This document shows, in pieces, positions 1 to 43,085 of a DNA stretch of 43,085 nucleotides. This DNA is from a virus. The position numbers were made by a program, and so were the translations under genes. Each line of letters starts with the position of its first letter. Within the stretch, counting starts at the first letter, position 1. The DNA is taken from IMG/VR virus record IMGVR_UViG_3300031673_000137, positions 1 to 43,085 of that record; one strand, given 5' to 3'. The notes beneath the pieces are model-generated. The model searched no databases. It worked only from the letters and a program-made list of their open reading frames with translations, and was not told the DNA's origin.

Positions 1-127
1 CCAGCATCCGCGCTACACCAGTGATGTTTGTGGCGGGTGACAACTTTGATGCCAGCATAGTTTATGGTATTCTTGGGCGAAACTGGACTGTACCTATGGC
101 TGTAACGGGTAATATCGCCCGACTTGA
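1..127. repeat. Terminal overlap: bases 1-127 are identical to 42959-43085 (circular-assembly overlap or terminal redundancy)
   Basis: Base-by-base comparison of both window ends. Unique length 43085-127 = 42958 bp. Confidence 0.95.
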
Positions 128-15513: not shown

Positions 15514-17514
15514 GTGCAAAAAGAAAATAGCGGCGCGACAAGCGCCGACTGGGCGCACTTCGCCGTAATGCTCGGCCTCACTGCCGACTTGCTGCCCGTG
15601 GTGAGCAACCAGGATGCCGTGATTGATCCCGCGTCGAGCATGAAGGGGTTGGGTAAGACCCCCTCACGGTACAACGGTTCGCGCCGCGCTGTTGGCTTCT
15701 CGAAGTGGACGCAGTACCAAGCCACGGATGCCGACATCACGAAGTGGATGCGCGAACAGGACTACGGTATCTGTCTGCAAACCCGCGAAGTGCGGGCGCT
15801 GGATATTGACGATGAGGAACTTGCGGGAAAGATAAGCGAGTTCATTGTCGGGCAGCACGTACTGCCCGAGCGGTTCCGCGAGAATTCTCGCAAGTGTCTG
15901 TTCGCTTTTCGCCTTGAAGGCGACTTCACCAAACGCAAATTCAAAACAGCCAGCGGCATTGTCGAATTCCTTGCAAACGGACAGCAATTCGTGGCTTGCG
16001 GAACCCACACGAGCGGCTCACGTTATGAGTGGTTCAACGGATTGCCGGACGGCATCCCCGAACTCACCGCCGAACAGTTTGAAGCCCTCTGGGCAGAACT
16101 CGTAAAGCAATTTGCTGTTGAGGACTCCGCGACTACCGCAGCCGCTACGAGCAAGCACTCAAAGCTCTCCGAAGCCGCGAGTAACGATCCGGTCGCACAA
16201 CAACTCATCGACCTCGATGTGGTCGTCAAAAATGAGCGCGACGGACGGCTCCACATAACCTGTCCATGGGAGGCCGAGCATACCTCGGCGAGTTCCGAAT
16301 CGGCTACTACCTACTGGCCTGCCCATACTGGCGGGTTCATCCACGGGCACTTCGATTGTAAGCACGCCCATTGCGAAGCCCGTACCGACGGCGAGTTCAA
16401 AGCCGCCTTGGGTATTGTCGATGCCGACTTGATGTCCGACTTCGAGGTGCTGGCAGACGAGCGGCCCGCCGACACTGACGAACCCGCCAAGGCGATGCGC
16501 TTCCAGCCTATCCACGGCGACGAGTTCGCGCAGCTTGTTGCGACCGAGTGGATTATCAAAGGCGTGCTGCCCAAAGCCGAGTTGGGGGTCGTGTTCGGCG
16601 AGTCGGGTTCGGGCAAGACGTTCAAGGTGCTGGACATCGCCATGGCGGTCGCCACCGGTACGGAGTGGCGGCAGCGGGCGGTGACTCAGGGCGCGGTGGT
16701 GTACATCGCCGCAGAAGGCTCTGGCGGCTTCAAGAAGCGGCTGCGCTCCTATGCGCAACACCATGGCCTCGACTTGTCCGATGTGCCGCTATACGTCATC
16801 CCGGCGGCCCCCAACCTGTTGCAGAAAGCCGATGCGCTTGACGTGGCTAAGGCCGTGCTATCGCTGGGTGTTAAAACGTCCTTGGTCATCATCGACACCT
16901 TGGCGCAAACCACGGCGGGCGGGAACGAGAACAGCGGCGAGGACATGGGCCTCGCCTTGTCGCACTGCAAAGGCATCCACAAGGCCACAGGCGCGATGGT
17001 GCTGCTGGTACATCACTCAGGCAAGGATACCAGCAAGGGCGCGCGCGGGTGGTCGGGGCTGCGCGCGGCTTGCGATGTGGAGCTTGAGGTGACGCGGTTC
17101 GACCAAGAGCGCATCCTGGCACTCACCAAGCAGAAGGACGGCGACGACATGCTTGAGTTCGGGTTCAGGCTCACCACGGTATCGTTGGGCTTCGATTCGG
17201 ATGGCGACGAGATCACCTCATGCGTCACCGAGCCGGTAGATGGCACGCAGCGCAAAGCGCGAGGCACAGGCAAGAAGCTGGGGCACAACGAGAGGCTGGT
17301 GCTGCGCACGATGGGTGAGATGATGTCGGGCGAGGGGGAAGGCGCGCAAGTGGGCAGGCTGATCGAGCTTGTCTCGGCGCAGATGTTGCCTCCCGATGAA
17401 GGCAAGAAGGACAGGCGGCGCGAGATGGCGCACAGGGCGATTCAGGCTTTGCAGGATGCGGAAAAGGTGGCGGTCAATGATCGCGGTGAACTATTTGTGA
17501 TGGGGGATGAGTGA
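15514..17514 (+). CDS. Bifunctional primase-polymerase / RepA-like (RecA-fold) helicase (666 aa)
   Basis: The N-terminal half is Prim-Pol-like (ICLQTREVRALDIDD). The C-terminal half has Walker A GESGSGKT and Walker B SLVIIDTLAQ. GTG start behind a GGGAG RBS. Confidence 0.8.
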   Translation: MQKENSGATSADWAHFAVMLGLTADLLPVVSNQDAVIDPASSMKGLGKTPSRYNGSRRAVGFSKWTQYQATDADITKWMREQDYGICLQTREVRALDIDDEELAGKISEFIVGQHVLPERFRENSRKCLFAFRLEGDFTKRKFKTASGIVEFLANGQQFVACGTHTSGSRYEWFNGLPDGIPELTAEQFEALWAELVKQFAVEDSATTAAATSKHSKLSEAASNDPVAQQLIDLDVVVKNERDGRLHITCPWEAEHTSASSESATTYWPAHTGGFIHGHFDCKHAHCEARTDGEFKAALGIVDADLMSDFEVLADERPADTDEPAKAMRFQPIHGDEFAQLVATEWIIKGVLPKAELGVVFGESGSGKTFKVLDIAMAVATGTEWRQRAVTQGAVVYIAAEGSGGFKKRLRSYAQHHGLDLSDVPLYVIPAAPNLLQKADALDVAKAVLSLGVKTSLVIIDTLAQTTAGGNENSGEDMGLALSHCKGIHKATGAMVLLVHHSGKDTSKGARGWSGLRAACDVELEVTRFDQERILALTKQKDGDDMLEFGFRLTTVSLGFDSDGDEITSCVTEPVDGTQRKARGTGKKLGHNERLVLRTMGEMMSGEGEGAQVGRLIELVSAQMLPPDEGKKDRRREMAHRAIQALQDAEKVAVNDRGELFVMGDE

Positions 17515-20190: not shown

Positions 20191-20340
20191 AAAGTGTGAG
20201 TAGGATTTCGATTCGGCTTGATCAAAGTGTGAGTAGGATTTCGATTCGGCTTGATCAAAGTGTGAGTAGGATTTCGATTCGGCTTGATCATAGTGTGAGT
20301 AGGATTTCGATTCGGCTTGATCATAGTGTGAGTAGGTTTT
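20191..20340. repeat. Iteron array: 33-bp unit AAAGTGTGAGTAGGATTTCGATTCGGCTTGATC x 4 plus a partial fifth copy
   Basis: Copies start at 20191, 20224, 20257, 20290 and 20323 (partial). Units differ only at the A/T after GATCA. Each full unit carries a GATC. Confidence 0.9.
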
Positions 20341-20423
20341 CACATATAAGCCGCTTCCCGCTTCCTGGCGCGCCCTTCCCGCATAGGTTAGTAACCACTA
20401 TCAAAATAAATTGCAAAAGACTA

Positions 20424-21180: not shown

Positions 21181-21208
21181 TATGACAATCCTCGCCCAAC
21201 TGACAGCG

Positions 21209-21293
21209 ATCCACAAACGCCGGCGCATATGGTGTGGCATCCTGGCAGCGGCATTCGCGAAACACGAAACTAAAATCACGAGGAGGTATTGAG
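21209..21293 (+). promoter_or_regulatory. Conserved leader, copy A (homologous to 22320-22405; 34-bp identical core 21236-21269)
   Basis: Aligned by eye. Shared core GGCATCCTGGCAGCGGCATTCGCGAAACACGAAA and shared RBS AGGAGGTATTGA. Contains a 14-codon uORF at 21229-21273. Confidence 0.7.
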
Positions 21294-21737
21294 ATGTCCA
21301 GTATAAACACTTTTAACGACGACACTAGCGAGGAATTGCGCAGCATCATTTGCCGATTGAACGATACCCGCGAACGTGTGCGCGTGTTTTATGGGGATAT
21401 AAAAACCGGCATAGCATGGCCCGAGGAAAACGATGTGGTAGGCCGTATAGGCTGCTCAACCGGGGGAAGCAAAATCCCGTTGCTGATACCCAATGCGCGC
21501 AGTCACGGCGGCGGCGGACTGCTCGATGGTTGCATCGTCGCGATATATGGCACATCAGGCCGCAAAATATACGCGCATCCTACGTTTTGCACGGGTATTT
21601 GGGGCGTAACCGGGCCTGTAAATAATGGCTATGTCGAAGCCGTATCCCACAATGGCAAATTACATGCGCAATTCAAAAAAGCCGGTCAAGCCGCGCGTTA
21701 TGTGGATTTTATGAATGGCGCGCGCTTTAGCAAATAG
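21294..21737 (+). CDS. Hypothetical protein (147 aa), cassette cargo A
   Basis: AGGAGG RBS 7 nt upstream. The last 4 codons (RFSK) and the stop lie inside a 60-bp repeat shared with the 22406-22609 cassette. Confidence 0.6.
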   Translation: MSSINTFNDDTSEELRSIICRLNDTRERVRVFYGDIKTGIAWPEENDVVGRIGCSTGGSKIPLLIPNARSHGGGGLLDGCIVAIYGTSGRKIYAHPTFCTGIWGVTGPVNNGYVEAVSHNGKLHAQFKKAGQAARYVDFMNGARFSK

Positions 21738-21745
21738 CAGGCCCT

Positions 21746-21769
21746 ATCCGCATTTCGGTGCGGGTTTTT
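21746..21769 (+). terminator. Rho-independent terminator, copy 1 of 3
   Basis: Stem ATCCGCA / TGCGGGT (one G-U pair) with loop TTTCGG, followed by T5. Confidence 0.75.
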
Positions 21770-21791
21770 ATGAAATTGAGAGGTGAAAATT

Positions 21792-22079
21792 ATGATATAC
21801 GATAATGCAACATCAACAGCCGGCAAAAGGATAAAGTTGCGCACGGATGGCACTTTCACTCTGGCGTTTTGCCCAAATTGTGTGGAAAGCACGCCGGTAA
21901 CCTTGCGCGCTTTTGTGTGTGAGAAATCGCTATCGCGCCTGGCGGAGAAATACGGGTTTGGCAGTAAAGCAGCAAAGGCATTGGCGCTTGATTTTCAAAA
22001 ATCGGCACACGGATTGAATAAATTTTCCGTGCAAATTTTTAACGCGGATGGCGTGCTGGTTGGTGATTTTAATCTTTGA
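21792..22079 (+). CDS. Hypothetical protein (95 aa)
   Basis: GAGAGGTG RBS 6 nt upstream of ATG 21792. Confidence 0.55.
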   Translation: MIYDNATSTAGKRIKLRTDGTFTLAFCPNCVESTPVTLRAFVCEKSLSRLAEKYGFGSKAAKALALDFQKSAHGLNKFSVQIFNADGVLVGDFNL

Positions 22080-22082
22080 GCT

Positions 22083-22106
22083 ATCCGCATTTCGGTGCGG
22101 GTTTTT
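22083..22106 (+). terminator. Rho-independent terminator, copy 2 of 3
   Basis: The 27-bp core at 22081-22107 is identical to 21744-21770. Confidence 0.75.
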
Positions 22107-22137
22107 AGTGAATAGATAATTGAGAGGTTAAAATAAA

Positions 22138-22320
22138 ATGGATACTCTAATTGCAAGAAAATGCAGCGATGGCAGCGTGGAGGTGTGGCGTAGTGCGGCG
22201 ACAGATCATCAACCCATTATGCGATTCGCGTCCTATCTGACAAACAAACTGGATTATAGGCATAAGTACGTGACGTATAACTGTGCACGCTATAACGTCA
22301 GGTGGGATAAAAGACAGTAA
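22138..22320 (+). CDS. Hypothetical protein (60 aa)
   Basis: GAGAGGT RBS upstream. Confidence 0.5.
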   Translation: MDTLIARKCSDGSVEVWRSAATDHQPIMRFASYLTNKLDYRHKYVTYNCARYNVRWDKRQ

Positions 22321-22405
22321 TCCACAAAAGGCGCGCGATATGGCGCGGCATCCTGGCAGCGGCATTCGCGAAACACGAAAAACAAATTATTAGGAGGTAT
22401 TGAAA
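22320..22405 (+). promoter_or_regulatory. Conserved leader, copy B (34-bp identical core 22347-22380)
   Basis: See copy A. Contains a 17-codon uORF at 22340-22393 whose TAG stop overlaps the downstream AGGAGG RBS. Confidence 0.7.
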
Positions 22406-22609
22406 ATGGCGTGCTTAACAAACTACACGGTGCAATGCACCGACGTTGTGTCAGGACTTGTTGGTTGCTTCCTTTTCGACACAATGCACTGGCAGAAAAC
22501 GGGGGAATTCAAGGCGATATCTCCGGTTTTTTCTGACCTTGCCGCGTTTTATAACGCCACTACGCATGATCAGCGTAAAGCCTGCTATCTGGAGCGCTTT
22601 AGCAAATAG
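22406..22609 (+). CDS. Hypothetical protein (67 aa), cassette cargo B
   Basis: AGGAGG RBS 8 nt upstream. C-terminal RFSK plus stop lie inside the shared 60-bp repeat. Confidence 0.55.
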   Translation: MACLTNYTVQCTDVVSGLVGCFLFDTMHWQKTGEFKAISPVFSDLAAFYNATTHDQRKACYLERFSK

Positions 22610-22617
22610 CAGGCCCT

Positions 22618-22641
22618 ATCCGCATTTCGGTGCGGGTTTTT
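22618..22641 (+). terminator. Rho-independent terminator, copy 3 of 3
   Basis: Lies within the 60-bp perfect repeat 22594-22653 = 21722-21781. Confidence 0.75.
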
Positions 22642-22670
22642 ATGAAATTGAGAATTGAAAGGAAATAATC

Positions 22671-22901: not shown

Positions 22902-22930
22902 AGCCCGCCATTGTGCGGGCTTTTTGCTTT
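22902..22930 (+). terminator. Rho-independent terminator closing the accessory region
   Basis: Stem GCCCGC / GCGGGC with loop CATTGT, followed by TTTTTGCTTTT. Confidence 0.75.
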
Positions 22931-22970
22931 TGTAGCGTTTCACCAGGTAGCTGGATCGAGTGTTGATACC

Positions 22971-23240
22971 TGCCCATCAGCACTGCCCATCAGCACCGCC
23001 CATCAGCACCACCCATCAGCACCACCCATCAGCACCACCCATCAGCACCACCCATCAGCACTGCCCATCAGCACTGCCCATCAGCCCTCAGCCCTCAGCC
23101 CTCAGCCCTCAGCCCTCAGCCCTCAGCCCTCAGCCCTCAGCCCTCAGCCCTCAGCCCTCAGCCCTCAGCCCTCCGCCCTCAACCCTCAGCCCTGCCCTGC
23201 CCTGCCCTGCCCGCCGCCGCCGCCGCCGCCGCCGCCGCCG
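22971..23240. repeat. Compound C-rich satellite: 13-bp x 8.8, then 7-bp x 15, then 5-bp x 4, then 3-bp x 10
   Basis: Hand count. (Y)(G/A)CCCATCAGCAC units at 22971-23085. CCTCAGC units at 23086-23190 (13 perfect, 2 variant). CCTGC units at 23191-23210. CCG units at 23211-23240. Confidence 0.9.
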
Positions 23241-23322
23241 AGGAGGGCATAGGCAATCCCTGCCGCCCTCGCCGCTCTAGACCGCGCATGTGCCTTTACT
23301 TCATCGCTATTCGGGTATTCCG

Positions 23323-23352
23323 TTGCACCGTAACGAATCATTATGTTACAAT
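23323..23352 (+). promoter_or_regulatory. Candidate late promoter (TTGCAC-18-TGtTACAAT) placing the transcript start at or next to the terS ATG
   Basis: The -35 is 23323-23328 and the extended -10 is 23344-23352. The inverted repeat GTAACGAAT (23330-38) / ATTCGTTAC (23351-59) overlaps it. No SD is visible before ATG 23360. Confidence 0.35.
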
Positions 23353-23359
23353 TCGTTAC

Positions 23360-23968
23360 ATGGATACCCCTAAAAAGCCCGGCCCGAAGCCGAAGAACGG
23401 AATACCGATGACCGGAGCGGAACGTGCTCGCGCCTGCCGCGCCGCGAAGGCCGGAAAGGTAATCGCCGCAGCCCCGCCCCCCGAACCCAAACCGCTACCT
23501 GCGCCGAAAGTGCGCAAAGCCAGATCGGATTCGACGGATAGCGCAATCATCGCGATGGCGAACGCCAGCAAAGCGCCCCTGATGCCCCCGATGCACGTAT
23601 CGCTCACCGAGAAGGCGATGTACTTCTGGGGTGGCATCATCGAGTCCCGTGCGCGCGATGCGTGGACAACCGCCGAGCTAGTCACGGCGGCGGCACTGGC
23701 AAATTGCCAAGCGCGAATCGAGGAGGAAGAGTATCTGATCGAGGCCGAGGGGAGCATCACCACGGACATCATGGGCAAAGACCAGATCAACCCGAGGGCG
23801 AAGCTGGTAGAGATTTACCATAAGCGGGCGCTGGCGCTGATGCGAACGCTGCGGATGGGAGGCACGGCGGCGGGCGACCCCGCCGATCTGGTGAAGGGCC
23901 GCACACTGGAGGGTGCTGCGCGCAAAATGATGCAGGATGAAGATGACCCCCACGGGCTGCTGGCGTGA
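23360..23968 (+). CDS. terS: Terminase small subunit (P27-family-like, 202 aa)
   Basis: Lies upstream of HNH and terL. The N-terminal PKKPGPKPK and the later NP...KL..Y pattern resemble P27-type small terminases. Start set at MDTPKKPG. Confidence 0.6.
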   Translation: MDTPKKPGPKPKNGIPMTGAERARACRAAKAGKVIAAAPPPEPKPLPAPKVRKARSDSTDSAIIAMANASKAPLMPPMHVSLTEKAMYFWGGIIESRARDAWTTAELVTAAALANCQARIEEEEYLIEAEGSITTDIMGKDQINPRAKLVEIYHKRALALMRTLRMGGTAAGDPADLVKGRTLEGAARKMMQDEDDPHGLLA

Positions 23969-24143: not shown

Positions 24144-24446
24144 ATGAGCTGGAGCAAAGAGTCGTCCACCAAGCGCGGGTACGGGTACAAGTGGCAACAG
24201 CTCCGACTCGCGGCACTTAAGCGCGACAAGGGCTTGTGCCAACCATGCCGGCGCGCGGGCCGCGTGACGCTCGCCACCGCCGTGGATCACATCATGCCTA
24301 AGGCGGAATGCAGGCGGCTACGCATCCCATCGGACTACCTGAACAACCTGCAAGGAATTTGCAAGGATTGCCACGATAAAAAGACGACGAAAGAGAATGG
24401 CGGTGAGCCGATAAAGGCTACGGGATTGGACGGCTGGCCTCTATGA
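24144..24446 (+). CDS. HNH endonuclease associated with the terminase (100 aa)
   Basis: CQPC...VDHIMP...NLQGICKDCHDKKT. ATGA overlap with terL. Confidence 0.85.
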   Translation: MSWSKESSTKRGYGYKWQQLRLAALKRDKGLCQPCRRAGRVTLATAVDHIMPKAECRRLRIPSDYLNNLQGICKDCHDKKTTKENGGEPIKATGLDGWPL

Positions 24447-25951
24447 CACGCGGCGAAAAGGTCTGCGCATTTATCGAGGGCTTCGTACTCGTTCCCGAGG
24501 GGGACTTGCTCGGGAAGCCGATGGTGCTTGACCCATTCCAGCGCGACTTTATCCTTGACGTATACGACAATCAGCACGGCACCCACACGGCGATTCTCAG
24601 CATCGCCCGCAAGAACGGCAAGACCGGTTTGATTGCCGCGCTGTTGCTCGCGCACCTCTGCGGCCCCGAAGCGGTGCAGAACAGCCAGATTGTCAGCGGT
24701 GCGATGAGCAAGGAGCAAGCCGCCGTGGTGTTTGAACTTGCGCGCAAGATGGTGGAGATGTCACCCAAACTCTCGGCGCTGGTTCGCGTGCAACCATCCG
24801 GCAAACGGCTCATCGGGCTGCGCAAGAACGTCCTCTACCGCGCGCTGTCCGCCGAAGGCAAGACCGCGCACGGGCTGTCGCCCATACTCGCCATATTGGA
24901 TGAGGTGGGCCAGATCGTCGGGCCGACTGACAAATTCGTCGAGGCGATCACCTCGGCGCAGGGCGCGTATACCAATCCGCTGCTGATTGCCATATCAACC
25001 CAAGCGCCGACAGCCAACGACCTTCTGAGTACGTGGATCGACGCGCAGCGCAACGCGCCCGACCCGCGAACTGTGTGCCACGTCTACGAAGCGCCCGACG
25101 ACTGTGCGCTGGACGACAAAGCGGCATGGGCGGCGGCCAACCCGGCGATGGGCGTGTTCCGCAGCATCGGCGACATCGAGAAGCAATGCAAACAAGCGAT
25201 GGAACTGCCGGCGAACGAACCCGCATTCCGCAACTTGGTGCTCAATATGCGCGTGGAGGCCGATTCACCGTTCGTCTCGCGCAGCGTTTGGGAAGCAAAC
25301 GGCGCATCGCCGGGCGACAAGCCAGTCGGCAAGGTATGGGCAGGGCTGGACTTGTCGGCGGTAGCCGACTTGACTGCTTTTGTGGCTGTTGACGAGACGG
25401 GCGGGGTGTTTCCGACGTTTTGGCTGCCGCATGAAGGGCTACGCGAGAAGGCGCGCAAGGAAAAAGTCCCGTATGACCTCTGGGAACGTGAGGGTTTATT
25501 GCTCACAACCCCCGGCAAAGCCATCGAGTACGCGCATGTAGCGGGGTTTTTACGCACGTTTTTCAATGAAAACGACGTGCAAGCCGTGGGGTTTGATAGG
25601 TATTTGTTCAATTTCCTGAAGCCGTGGCTGGAAAAAGAGGGTTTTTCCGAGGCAGAATTAGGGAAATTCATACCTTTTGGGCAGGGAACGGTGTCGCAAA
25701 CGCCAGCTTTGCGTGAATTAGAGGTGAAACTGAGTAATCACGCTCTAAAACACGGGAATCATCCAGTTATGAATATGTGTTGCGCGAATGCGAAGGTAGT
25801 AGGCACTACCGATTGTAGAAAGTTCGACAAAAAGAAGCAGCGCGGTAGAATTGACGGAATGAGCGCCTTGGCCAACGCAATCGGCGTAATGCCGACGATC
25901 CCCGAAGACACGACCTCAATTTACGACACACAAGGGGTGTACATTGGCTAA
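24443..25951 (+). CDS. terL: Terminase large subunit (502 aa)
   Basis: Walker A-like ARKNGKTG, Walker B ILAILDEVGQ. Size and position before the portal gene fit. Confidence 0.85.
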   Translation: MTRGEKVCAFIEGFVLVPEGDLLGKPMVLDPFQRDFILDVYDNQHGTHTAILSIARKNGKTGLIAALLLAHLCGPEAVQNSQIVSGAMSKEQAAVVFELARKMVEMSPKLSALVRVQPSGKRLIGLRKNVLYRALSAEGKTAHGLSPILAILDEVGQIVGPTDKFVEAITSAQGAYTNPLLIAISTQAPTANDLLSTWIDAQRNAPDPRTVCHVYEAPDDCALDDKAAWAAANPAMGVFRSIGDIEKQCKQAMELPANEPAFRNLVLNMRVEADSPFVSRSVWEANGASPGDKPVGKVWAGLDLSAVADLTAFVAVDETGGVFPTFWLPHEGLREKARKEKVPYDLWEREGLLLTTPGKAIEYAHVAGFLRTFFNENDVQAVGFDRYLFNFLKPWLEKEGFSEAELGKFIPFGQGTVSQTPALRELEVKLSNHALKHGNHPVMNMCCANAKVVGTTDCRKFDKKKQRGRIDGMSALANAIGVMPTIPEDTTSIYDTQGVYIG

Positions 25952-30960: not shown

Positions 30961-31323
30961 ATGGCTACCGTGCGCATGAAAACGCTCGAATGCGGCCCCG
31001 AAGGGAGTTTCGCGATAGATGAATTACGCGAAGTTTCCTTCAAGCAGGGCGAGATGCTTGTCGATACGAACCACGCGGTTTGGGTAGACAAAGGCGTTCC
31101 GCCCACTAAGGCTGAACTTAAACGCCTCGAAGCCGAGAAGCTGGAAGCCGAACGCATCGAAGCCGAGAAGCTCGAAGCCGAGAAGCTGGAAGCCGAGAAG
31201 CTGGAAGCCGAGAAGCTGGAAGCCGAGAAGCTGGAAGCCGAGAAGCTGGAAGCTGAACGCCTCGCAAGCGGCGATCCTGAATTTGCTACAGCCCCGAAGG
31301 CCGAGCAAACCGCGAAGCGATAA
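30961..31323 (+). CDS. Hypothetical protein with nine LEAEK/R pentapeptide repeats (120 aa)
   Basis: ORF in the head module. The repeat is encoded by 15-bp tandem units. Confidence 0.6.
31126..31260 (+). repeat. In-frame 15-bp tandem repeat x 9 (CTGGAAGCCGAGAAG type)
   Basis: Counted by hand. Six central copies are nearly identical. The outer copies carry R for K and I for L. Confidence 0.9.
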
Positions 31324-32452: not shown

Positions 32453-33162
32453 CAACACCTTGGAACCCTGACGGCATCTGGCAAGGCGAGACGGTCGCCA
32501 TTCTCGGCGCTGGCCCCGACATGACTGCCGAACTGGCGATGACCGCCAAAGGCTTCAAAACCATCGCCGTGAACCGCGCTGTGAAATTCGCACCGTGGGC
32601 GGATATGTTCGTTGCTCTCGACCCGCATCACCCTTTCTGGGAAGAGAAGGACAATGTGGGCTTCACCGGCATTTGCGTCCTCGGCGCTGAGCACGCAGAC
32701 TACGACGCGATGTACGCCGGGATGTTCTACGAGCGCGTCAATATGGGCGAAGGGCACACGCTGGAAGTGCGCAACAACGCGCTGGCCGCTGTCCGAATCG
32801 CGGCTCGCGCAGGCGCGGCCAAGATCATCTTGCTCGGCTTCGACACCACGCGCTACGAAGAAGTCCATGCCGAGACAGGCTTCCGTGGACTCACCGAAGG
32901 ACTCGCGCAAATGACTGCCGAACTCACCGCAGCAGGGATCGTCGTTGAGCAGATCGACTCGCCCGTGCAGTTGCCAGGTACTCGCGCCCCGCGACGCGGG
33001 GAGCAGGTTGACGTTGCTACGTTCCCGCAAGTTGCGCCAGTCGCCGAAGAGCCATTTGTTGAACCAGTCGCCGAAGAACCATTTGTTGAACCAGTTGTTG
33101 AACCAGTTGTTGAGCCAGTTGTTGAGCCAGCCGCCGAAGAGGTTAAAAAAGGCTGGTTCTAA
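32449..33162 (+). CDS. Rossmann-like protein resembling MptE/DUF115 (Maf-type glycosyltransferase-like) with a Pro/Glu/Val repeat tail (237 aa)
   Basis: GETVAILGAGPDM...KTIAVNRAVKF..ADMFVALDP resembles the G.GPS...N...PD...D signature (from memory). The C-terminus is PVAEEPFVE x2 plus PVVE x3. Confidence 0.35.
   Translation: MTTPWNPDGIWQGETVAILGAGPDMTAELAMTAKGFKTIAVNRAVKFAPWADMFVALDPHHPFWEEKDNVGFTGICVLGAEHADYDAMYAGMFYERVNMGEGHTLEVRNNALAAVRIAARAGAAKIILLGFDTTRYEEVHAETGFRGLTEGLAQMTAELTAAGIVVEQIDSPVQLPGTRAPRRGEQVDVATFPQVAPVAEEPFVEPVAEEPFVEPVVEPVVEPVVEPAAEEVKKGWF
33037..33126 (+). repeat. In-frame tandem repeats: 27-bp x 2 (33037-33090) then 12-bp x 3 (33091-33126)
   Basis: Counted by hand in the 3' end of the 32449-33162 CDS. 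Confidence 0.85.
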
Positions 33163-42037: not shown

Positions 42038-43085
42038 GTTCTCCCGATTTCAAATTCGTAGCGCCCACCGTTATCACCGATGCGATGCTCACGTCGAGCA
42101 ACGTACCCGAAGCGGTAGCCGCAACCTACGCTGGCGGAACGACCTACGCGCTCGCGGATCGCGTCGGACTTGCCCCTGTTGACGGCGCGGCACAACTTAT
42201 TTACGAATCGCTATCCGCAGGCAACATCGGCAACCCACTCCCTGTCCCCCCGGCTACCGCGACGGCATTTTGGCGTTATGTTGGGAGTGTCTACCCTGCG
42301 TACTCCGCCGCCGTTACCTACGGACTCGGCGCGACAGTATCGAGCACATCAACCAATGTGCATGAGCTGTACGAATCGCTAGTCGCGGGTAATGTCGGCA
42401 ATGCGCTCACTGATGCTACGAAATGGCTTGATCTTGGTTCGACGAACCGCTGGGCGATGTTCGATCAGATCATGGCCAGCCAAACCACAAATGCGGAAAG
42501 CATTACGCTGGTGCTCGCACCGGGCGTACTGATAAATTCTGTTGTACTCGCCAATCTTATCGGCGGCAGTGTTCGTATCCAGCAGTCGATCAGCGGATAC
42601 GACCGAACTATTTCGCTTAATTCTCACGTTGCTGCGGATTGGTACGGCTGGTTCTACGACCCGCTGCTTACCAAGAGCGCGGTGGCGTTCATGGACATCC
42701 CGCCCTATCCAGCGGGTGTACTTACGATCACCATATCAGGAACTAACGGTACTGCCGGGTGCGGGGTTATCGTGCTCGGGCAGGCAACCTACATAGGCAC
42801 AACGTTAGCCAACCCGACCAGGGGGATCAATGACTATTCACGGATTATAGAGGACGCTTGGGGCGGTTTGGTGCTTGTGCCGGGGGGTTACTCTGCTACT
42901 TTGAGTGTCGAGGTATTTGTCCCGGAAGGGTACGAATCGCAAGCCGTGGCTTTACTCGCCAGCATCCGCGCTACACCAGTGATGTTTGTGGCGGGTGACA
43001 ACTTTGATGCCAGCATAGTTTATGGTATTCTTGGGCGAAACTGGACTGTACCTATGGCTGTAACGGGTAATATCGCCCGACTTGA
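42034..43085 (+). CDS. Tail tip / host-recognition-associated protein, 5' part (full gene 42034 -> junction -> 146, 356 aa)
   Basis: ATGA overlap with the previous gene. The frame has no stop up to the window end, which is why the ORF track does not list it. It contains two copies of a Y..G..V....YESL.AGN.GN.L motif. Confidence 0.7.
   Translation, partial: MSSPDFKFVAPTVITDAMLTSSNVPEAVAATYAGGTTYALADRVGLAPVDGAAQLIYESLSAGNIGNPLPVPPATATAFWRYVGSVYPAYSAAVTYGLGATVSSTSTNVHELYESLVAGNVGNALTDATKWLDLGSTNRWAMFDQIMASQTTNAESITLVLAPGVLINSVVLANLIGGSVRIQQSISGYDRTISLNSHVAADWYGWFYDPLLTKSAVAFMDIPPYPAGVLTITISGTNGTAGCGVIVLGQATYIGTTLANPTRGINDYSRIIEDAWGGLVLVPGGYSATLSVEVFVPEGYESQAVALLASIRATPVMFVAGDNFDASIVYGILGRNWTVPMAVTGNIARL
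42959..43085. repeat. Second copy of the 127-bp terminal overlap
   Basis: Identical to 1-127. Confidence 0.95.

Follow-up and report, generated by a model that had tools for sequence, protein, structure and literature searches.

A copy-number-variable compound microsatellite beside the cos site of an HK97-type phage genome

The window analyzed here, a stretch of 43,085 nucleotides of viral DNA (IMG/VR record IMGVR_UViG_3300031673_000137), contains a 270-bp compound array of short tandem repeats at positions 22971–23240, which is real, variable in copy number, non-coding, and located beside the cos site. The explanation that we prefer, with moderate confidence, is that the array is slippage-prone filler DNA, a VNTR that is selectively tolerated in the non-coding interval between the last upstream terminator and a cos site of the HK97 type.

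Direct counting and Tandem Repeats Finder (TRF) both resolve the region into four short tandem repeat arrays that directly adjoin one another, without spacers. This organization had been proposed in a first-pass annotation, together with 15 CCTCAGC-type heptamers (13 of them perfect), four pentamers, and ten CCG units, and the direct count returned the same numbers. The first array, at 22971–23085, comprises 8.8 copies of the 13-mer (T/C)(G/A)CCCATCAGCAC; TRF calls it as GCCCATCAGCACC at 22972–23085 (8.8 copies, 96% matches), and the direct count finds nine CCCATCAG units in this part, equivalent to eight full 13-mers. It is followed by 15 units of CCCTCAG at 23086–23190, 13 of which are perfect (TRF: GCCCTCA, 23076–23193, 16.7 copies, with transition units counted in), four units of CCCTG at 23191–23210 (TRF: GCCCT, 23189–23212, 4.8 copies), and ten units of CCG at 23211–23240 (TRF: 10.0 copies); none of the four arrays is assigned to a strand. 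Across the periods of 13, 7, 5, and 3, TRF matches were 95–100%, and the scores were 179, 213, 48, and 60, respectively. Among 100 windows simulated under a Markov-1 model, with dinucleotide composition preserved, the best score was 74; at 179–213, the 13-mer and 7-mer arrays clearly exceed it, and the compound array is far beyond chance.

The top strand of the array is 56% C, and the minus strand carries 29 GGG tracts; an earlier figure of about 20 fits the 7-mer and 5-mer part alone, which holds 20 of the 29. Five non-overlapping canonical G-quadruplex (G4) motifs (G3+N1-7G3+N1-7G3+N1-7G3+) were counted on the minus strand at 23085–23212, in agreement with the canonical pattern that had been noticed there, and when both strands of the window were searched only one further motif was found elsewhere, so that the array holds five of the six. 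Hairpin or cruciform potential was not found when the array was folded by Watson-Crick pairing and compared with shuffled sequences: the C-rich top strand folds worse than the shuffles (z = +3.4), and the G-rich bottom strand is similar to them (z = +0.7). A search of Rfam with the array returned zero family matches.

Tandem repeats of other kinds occur elsewhere in the window. A 33-bp unit repeated 4.6 times at 98% identity (AAAGTGTGAGTAGGATTTCGATTCGGCTTGATC; 20191–20341) is iteron-like and lies ~2.7 kb downstream of a Prim-Pol/AAA_25 replication gene (gene end near 17514), and in-frame coding tandem repeats are present at 31129–31253 (a 15-bp unit repeated 8.3 times that encodes (EAEKL)n) and, in a neighboring structural gene, at 33037–33130 (27- and 12-bp units).

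An identical copy of the 226-aa TerS ORF is present on other public assemblies, and the array was compared between the window and three independent assemblies, L007 (JGI) and L008 and L012 (ENA, k141). Copy number differs among the four in three of the four sub-arrays: the window, L012, L008, and L007 contain 9, 9, 7, and 8 CCCATCAG units and 10, 10, 8, and 8 CCG units, respectively, and the heptamer is present in 15 units (13 perfect) in the window and in 18 units (16 perfect) in each of the other three. The order of internal variants is common to all four assemblies, the 13-mers running TG, CG, CA..., TG, TG and the heptamer array ending on its 3′-side with CCCTCCG, CCCTCAA, and CCCTCAG; in L012, L008, and L007, the 13-mers are additionally preceded by a 9-nt leader that resembles CCCTG. 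The flanks of these three strains are 99.3, 98.6, and 98.4% identical to the window, and the two, three, and three indel events found over 6.5–7 kb in the three comparisons all lie inside the array, the length of which differs from that of the window by +30, −2, and +11 nt. The suggestion that the region is slippage-variable is thus supported to the extent that copy numbers differ between near-identical strains (98.4–99.3%). By its unit purity and its copy-number polymorphism, the array is a compound microsatellite or VNTR.

The possibility of an assembly artefact had also been raised, as something that long reads could show, and the recurrence of the array and its variant order in four assemblies made by different pipelines speaks against it. 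The longest runs of exact period (93–114 nt) are shorter than the assembler k, which is 127 as judged from the overlap of the window ends or 141 as given in the contig names, and assemblers can therefore resolve the copy numbers. A Logan contig assembled with k = 31 (L006), which is 100% identical downstream, begins inside the CCG run, and a break at this point is the behavior expected from a real satellite. The array is genuine.

The two ends of the window (1–127 and 42959–43085) overlap exactly over 127 bp; thus, the window represents a genome of ~42,958 bp that was assembled as a circle. Judged by its packaging genes, it is an ~43-kb HK97-type cos phage. The packaging module is of the HK97 type (Hendrixvirinae-like) and lies on the plus strand: terS encodes a Hendrixvirinae-type small terminase (23360–23968; phrog_5601, E = 4e-32; PF26841), terL an HK97-type large terminase (24443–25951; PF03354 and PF20441), and an HNH endonuclease gene (24144–24446; PF01844) stands between them; a portal gene follows downstream of terL. 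Gene callers choose ATG 23288 or 23408 as the start of terS. The TerL protein is 55% identical to that of HK97 and 56% identical to that of 16-3, and its nearest genome-derived relatives come from metagenome-assembled genomes (MAGs) of Comamonadaceae and Burkholderiaceae, so that the host is probably a betaproteobacterium.

Upstream of the array, the last moron-like gene ends in an intrinsic terminator at 22902–22930 on the plus strand, in which a stem (22902–22921; seven pairs, six of them G-C) is followed by TTTTTGCTTTT; the terminator proposed at this position was thus recovered. Farther upstream, at 21202–22660, cassettes of moron-like small genes are reiterated, with a 91-nt leader at 21202 and 22313 (82% identical) and nearly identical terminators at 21746, 22083, and 22618, which are separate from that at 22902–22930. 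Downstream, the array had been placed immediately before terS; it does precede the gene, but 120 nt separate its end from the terS start codon (ATG, 23360), and cos lies between the two. An inverted repeat (GTAACGAAT / ATTCGTTAC; 23330–23359, plus strand) surrounds an extended −10 element, TGtTACAAT (23344–23352), which is located between cos and terS, 7 nt before the terS ATG. The inverted repeat is kept in relatives, and the extended −10 element is conserved in L054–L057, L017, L028, and L009, where it reads TGcTACAAT or TGcTATAAT; a consensus promoter scan missed it because the −35 element is weak. The segment 23330–23359 offers a candidate promoter and operator for the packaging genes, which suggests that their operon is transcribed from a regulated, possibly leaderless promoter downstream of cos. 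The array would then lie outside the packaging-operon transcript and is probably untranscribed.

The position of cos can be predicted from the start points of assembled contigs. The contigs of six diverged relatives (L054, L055, L056, L057, L017, and L024, from at least five samples) start at positions that align to 23293 of the window, open with CCTT(T/C), and continue with GCTAA, GCTAT, or CGTAA at +14; L054 is identical to the window over 23293–23314. Contigs broken by repeats (L006 and L011) begin within the repeat, whereas these six begin in unique sequence at one homologous base, and their starts are therefore most likely physical ends. Position 23293 is also homologous to the starts of the GenBank records of HK97 and 16-3, which begin at the experimentally determined left end. 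The chromosome thus most likely has defined termini, which lie at a conserved position ahead of terS, with top-strand cleavage predicted after 23292. The cohesive ends of HK97 have a 10-nt 3′-overhang (PMC11331095), and the GenBank record of 16-3 is annotated with a 10-nt 3′-cohesive end; by analogy with both, an overhang of 10 nt, CGCGCATGTG (23283–23292, plus strand), is predicted for the window. In this way, the start points of contigs of relatives allow cos to be located to the base in an uncultured phage.

Several elements around the predicted cut are conserved. The left chromosome end, as placed by the relatives' contig starts and the HK97/16-3 alignment, reads CCTTTACTTCATC-GCTATTCGGGTATTCC (23293–23321, plus strand), and its GCTA(A) at +14 corresponds to GCTAAC at +14 in the TerS site of HK97, the TerS of which binds +15 to +29 (PMC11331095). 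When the sequences are aligned on the cut, AGACCG (23279–23284, plus strand; −14 to −9), which surrounds the point where the bottom strand is expected to be nicked, is matched by AGACCG, GGACCG, or TGACCG in relatives and HK97, and by GTACCG at −15 to −10 in 16-3. In the same alignment, a degenerate G-tract, AGGAGGGCATAGG (23241–23254, plus strand; −52 to −39), which reads GGGGAGGG in L007 and L008, is homologous to a tract at −56 to −40 of HK97, 16-3, and other relatives. Comparison with relatives that read through cos (L059, L064, L065, L025, and L026) and with the joined ends of HK97 and 16-3 yields a shared layout, namely, a G-tract at −56 to −40, (A/G/T)GACCG at −14 to −9, the cut, CCTTY, and GCTAA at +14. 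A top-strand, GGGGAGGGGG-like G-tract is found in HK97 (NC_002167, 39677–39690), 16-3 (NC_011103, 60140–60157), L059, L064, L065, L025, and L026, and is common to cos sites of HK97-type phages of E. coli, Sinorhizobium, Pseudomonas, and Burkholderiales. This tract is not mentioned in the HK97 terminase papers that were consulted; it may be a cos sub-site, and it is reminiscent of the G-rich sequences that flank herpesvirus pac1. Both by-products of the analysis, this tract and the mapping of cos from contig starts, are perhaps more useful than the array.

All of these conserved cos elements (the G-tract, AGACCG, CCTTY, and GCTAA) lie outside the array. Since (CCG)10 ends at 23240, it directly adjoins the G-tract at 23241, and with a cut after 23292 the array spans −322 to −53 at the right end of the chromosome, which is packaged last. 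The expectation that the array lies near a physical genome end thus agrees with the prediction, which places the cos cleavage 53 bp downstream.

According to the explanation that we prefer, whole units would have been gained and lost independently in three of the four sub-arrays, presumably by replication slippage or unequal exchange. Such changes would be tolerated for two reasons: this DNA is not translated and is probably not transcribed either, and the exact length of the genome is of no consequence to a cos phage. Length differences of +30, −2, and +11 nt between strains imply that no reading frame is kept, and a coding or phase-variable ORF was rejected on these grounds, the units of 13, 7, and 5 nt not being multiples of three and the strain differences breaking the frame. 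Packaging would not depend on the sequence of the array itself; the cos signals are located in unique DNA downstream. As regards its origin, the single-copy cos stretch 23259–23276 (CCCTGCCGCCCTCGCCGC) contains the short units of the array (CCCTG, CCG, and CCCTC), which, together with the CCCTG-like leader of the other strains, is compatible with growth of the array from a local C-rich seed. If the array is filler, it provides a natural strain marker for this phage and a predictable assembly break point, as illustrated by the Logan contigs L006 and L011, which begin in such arrays, and it cautions against inferring function from the density of G4 motifs alone. Two observations stand as counterpoints to neutral filler: the repeats are very pure and contain five of the six G4 motifs of the genome, which is compatible with a structural role, and unrelated repeats occupy the same slot in L011, L025, L026, and L027 (=L059).

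This slot is instructive when relatives are compared. The HNH gene is located between terS and terL in the window, L009, and L011, and directly upstream of cos in HK97, 16-3, and relatives of 70–73% TerL identity (L059, L064, and L026); the satellites occupy the slot left by HNH upstream of cos. In the Logan contig L011, the TerS of which is 70% identical to that of the window, the sequence begins inside a different compound satellite with a C-rich top strand, (CCAA)n followed by (CCCAA)5, which ends ~110 bp upstream of the predicted cut. In L025, L026, and L027 (=L059), three palindrome-bearing tandem repeats of 21–27 bp are located between the HNH stop codon and the G-tract, which they adjoin (L025, 2718–2776; L026, 313–397; L027, 1062–1136, equal to L059, 3374–3448); the phages that host them are TerL relatives of 70–71% identity, and the repeats, with cores such as TGTGTGGCAACACACA, look like protein-binding sites. 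On the other hand, L064, L065, HK97, and 16-3 have the cos G-tract and lack upstream repeats. Repeats thus recur in the slot, with unrelated sequences, and are dispensable in many relatives. This recurrence hints at selection for some property or at a local mutational bias, beyond a purely neutral reading. Wider searches were negative: megablast against phage GenBank records found no close relatives, IMG/VR was scanned with the 13-mer array and separately with the cos core, with zero matches in both cases, a TerS-based scan of genome contigs gave no matches, and a TerL scan of genome contigs returned relatives of at most 73% identity, none of which has the array. A search for right-end contigs via the upstream 147-aa protein found homologs only in differently organized phages.

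Arrays of the heptamer type were also surveyed beyond these relatives. CCCTCAG arrays were found in four IMG/VR contigs, two of which carry them just upstream of unrelated terminase genes and one 480 nt downstream of terL. IMG/VR was scanned for any GGGNNNN array of at least 10 units (loci L067–L185; e.g., L004, L096, L098, L133, L134, and L181). The 120 matches listed comprise 44 poly-G runs at contig ends, which are likely to be sequencing artefacts, 3 TTTAGGG arrays, and 73 true heptamer arrays; at least 73 IMG/VR contigs therefore have non-poly-G GGGNNNN arrays. Their units are diverse, several of the arrays are compound, and 29 of the 73 listed are at locus ends. Among the matches listed, TerL domains were encoded by ~10 of 86 large ORFs less than 2.5 kb from an array and, at distances above 4 kb, by ~5 of 81 ORFs (p = 0.28, Fisher test), and the orientation of the G-rich strand relative to neighboring genes showed no preference (26 vs. 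29). A general tie of GGG-heptamer arrays to terminase genes, which three of the four CCCTCAG matches had prompted, was rejected on account of this p-value (0.28) and the absence of strand bias. GGG-heptamer satellites thus appear to be fairly common in viral contigs and have no general tie to packaging.

The main rival to the filler explanation is that the array is an accessory element of cos, which we regard as possible rather than probable. As the last 270 bp to be translocated, the array would slow down either the motor or the ring of TerS moving ahead of it, so that TerS clamps and TerL/HNH cut; the role would be independent of sequence, depending either on C/G-rich, G4-prone DNA or on a platform of 13-mers for protein binding. 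The position of the array, −322 to −53 and adjoining the conserved G-tract, fits such a role, as does the occurrence of other kinds of repeats in the same slot of L011, L025, L026, and L059. In HK97, slow packaging makes stalling and termination at cos more efficient, and TerL pushes TerS ahead of it along the DNA (PMC11331095; PMC9410871), which also favors this model. However, termination proceeds in HK97, 16-3, L064, and L065, which lack an array, copy number is free to drift, the 13-mer has neither dyad symmetry nor any resemblance to the repeats of the relatives, and slowing of the terminase by DNA of this kind is a conjecture. It is also tempting to speculate that a "repeat slot" directly upstream of the G-tract is a feature of HK97-type cos sites, in which, in this lineage, a G4-prone satellite would act as a tunable brake and slippage would adjust termination, a functional counterpart of the GC-rich reiterations next to herpesvirus pac; we consider this extension doubtful. 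If the array did modulate termination, it would be the first sequence-independent, length-variable accessory element of a cos site and would link phage cos to herpesvirus pac.

A G4 or i-motif barrier or insulator is an unlikely alternative to tolerated filler. In this model, G4s on the minus strand, which is the template for rightward transcription, would block read-through RNA polymerase or stall replication forks and thereby keep cos free. Between the terminator and cos, only the minus strand carries the five tandem canonical motifs and 29 GGG tracts, and a separate promoter downstream of cos appears to serve the packaging operon. These are patterns in the sequence, however, and G4 formation would require prior unwinding of the duplex; moreover, GGG-heptamer arrays elsewhere show no preference for gene orientation (26 vs. 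29 among the matches listed), and a barrier of this kind is absent from relatives in which transcription of HNH runs directly into cos.

Protection of the DNA end is very improbable; in this model, clustered Chi-like octamers, or a buffer similar to a telomere, would attenuate RecBCD at the end that is injected first. The array is 53–322 bp from the end, and its minus strand contains nine copies of GCTGATGG, which is one base off the E. coli Chi sequence GCTGGTGG, as well as 13 copies of GCTGAGGG. However, RecBCD that enters at the right end reads the 3′-ended top strand, which is C-rich here, so that the octamers are in the wrong orientation, and the plus strand, not the G-rich strand of the array, carries all five exact copies of GCTGGTGG in the window. 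A cluster of Chi sites of the E. coli type was rejected because the octamers lie on the minus strand; the host's own Chi may differ. The exact GCTGGTGG copies (2970, 12991, 18868, 36995, and 40778; none on the minus strand, with ~1 expected per strand) are oriented so as to be active when RecBCD enters at the right cos end. Finally, it is extremely improbable that the array is an assembly artefact or encodes a low-complexity, proline-rich ORF: short-read assemblers can mis-build satellites, and ORFs at 22911–23252 and 22960–23280 span the array, but the array recurs with its variant order across four assemblies and different pipelines, none of its perfect runs is as long as k, the terminator contains the starts of the ORFs, and the 13-, 7-, and 5-nt units, together with strain differences of −2 and +11 nt, break the frame.

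Among known systems, compound microsatellites and VNTR loci, which evolve by replication slippage, resemble the array most directly in their head-to-tail units of 3–13 bp, high purity, independent gain and loss of units, and non-coding location. The array differs from this class in that its unit length steps from 13 through 7 and 5 to 3 toward cos, in that one strand is C-rich throughout, and in that it abuts a packaging site. To our knowledge, phages have not been described with such a graded compound array beside a packaging site, and literature searches on microsatellites or G4 motifs adjacent to phage cos sites yielded nothing specific. The cos regions of HK97 and 16-3 share with the window the PF26841 TerS, the HK97-type TerL, HNH, the G-tract, AGACCG near −10, and GCTAA at +14; by contrast, they have no array, which in the window lies outside the conserved cos elements, and the HNH gene of the window is between terS and terL.

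A parallel with T7 had been drawn in the first-pass annotation, and one half of it stands. T7 does carry short repeats beside its genome end (SRL/SRR), CCTAAAG-type repeats with a period of ~13 at 174–340, after the 160-bp terminal repeat (81–82% matches). The T7 genome, however, has direct terminal repeats and another packaging system, and its repeats are imperfect, A/T-rich, and not microsatellite-like, whereas the window, by its TerS and TerL families, belongs to an HK97-type phage with cos ends. A T7-type terminal array was rejected on the basis of the HK97-type terminase and because the sole end duplication (1–127 = 42959–43085) is the assembly overlap of a circular contig.

In lambda, cosQ is a short unique sequence upstream of cosN that is required for termination. 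The array similarly lies on the last-packaged side of the cut, where a termination element would be located; it differs from cosQ in being a variable satellite for which a requirement in termination is only conjectural. The "a" sequence of herpesviruses contains GC-rich DR2 reiterations near pac1, and HHV-6 has telomere-like repeats beside pac. Like the array, the reiterations of the "a" sequence are short, GC-rich, G4-capable, and variable in copy number, and they stand beside a cleavage and packaging signal in a virus of the HK97-fold lineage; the host domain, the repeat units, and the logic of terminase recognition differ, which makes the likeness an analogy only. The flanks of herpesvirus pac1 are G-rich and have G4 potential (PMC13595911), and the better phage counterpart of these G-tracts is the unique G-tract of cos rather than the array.
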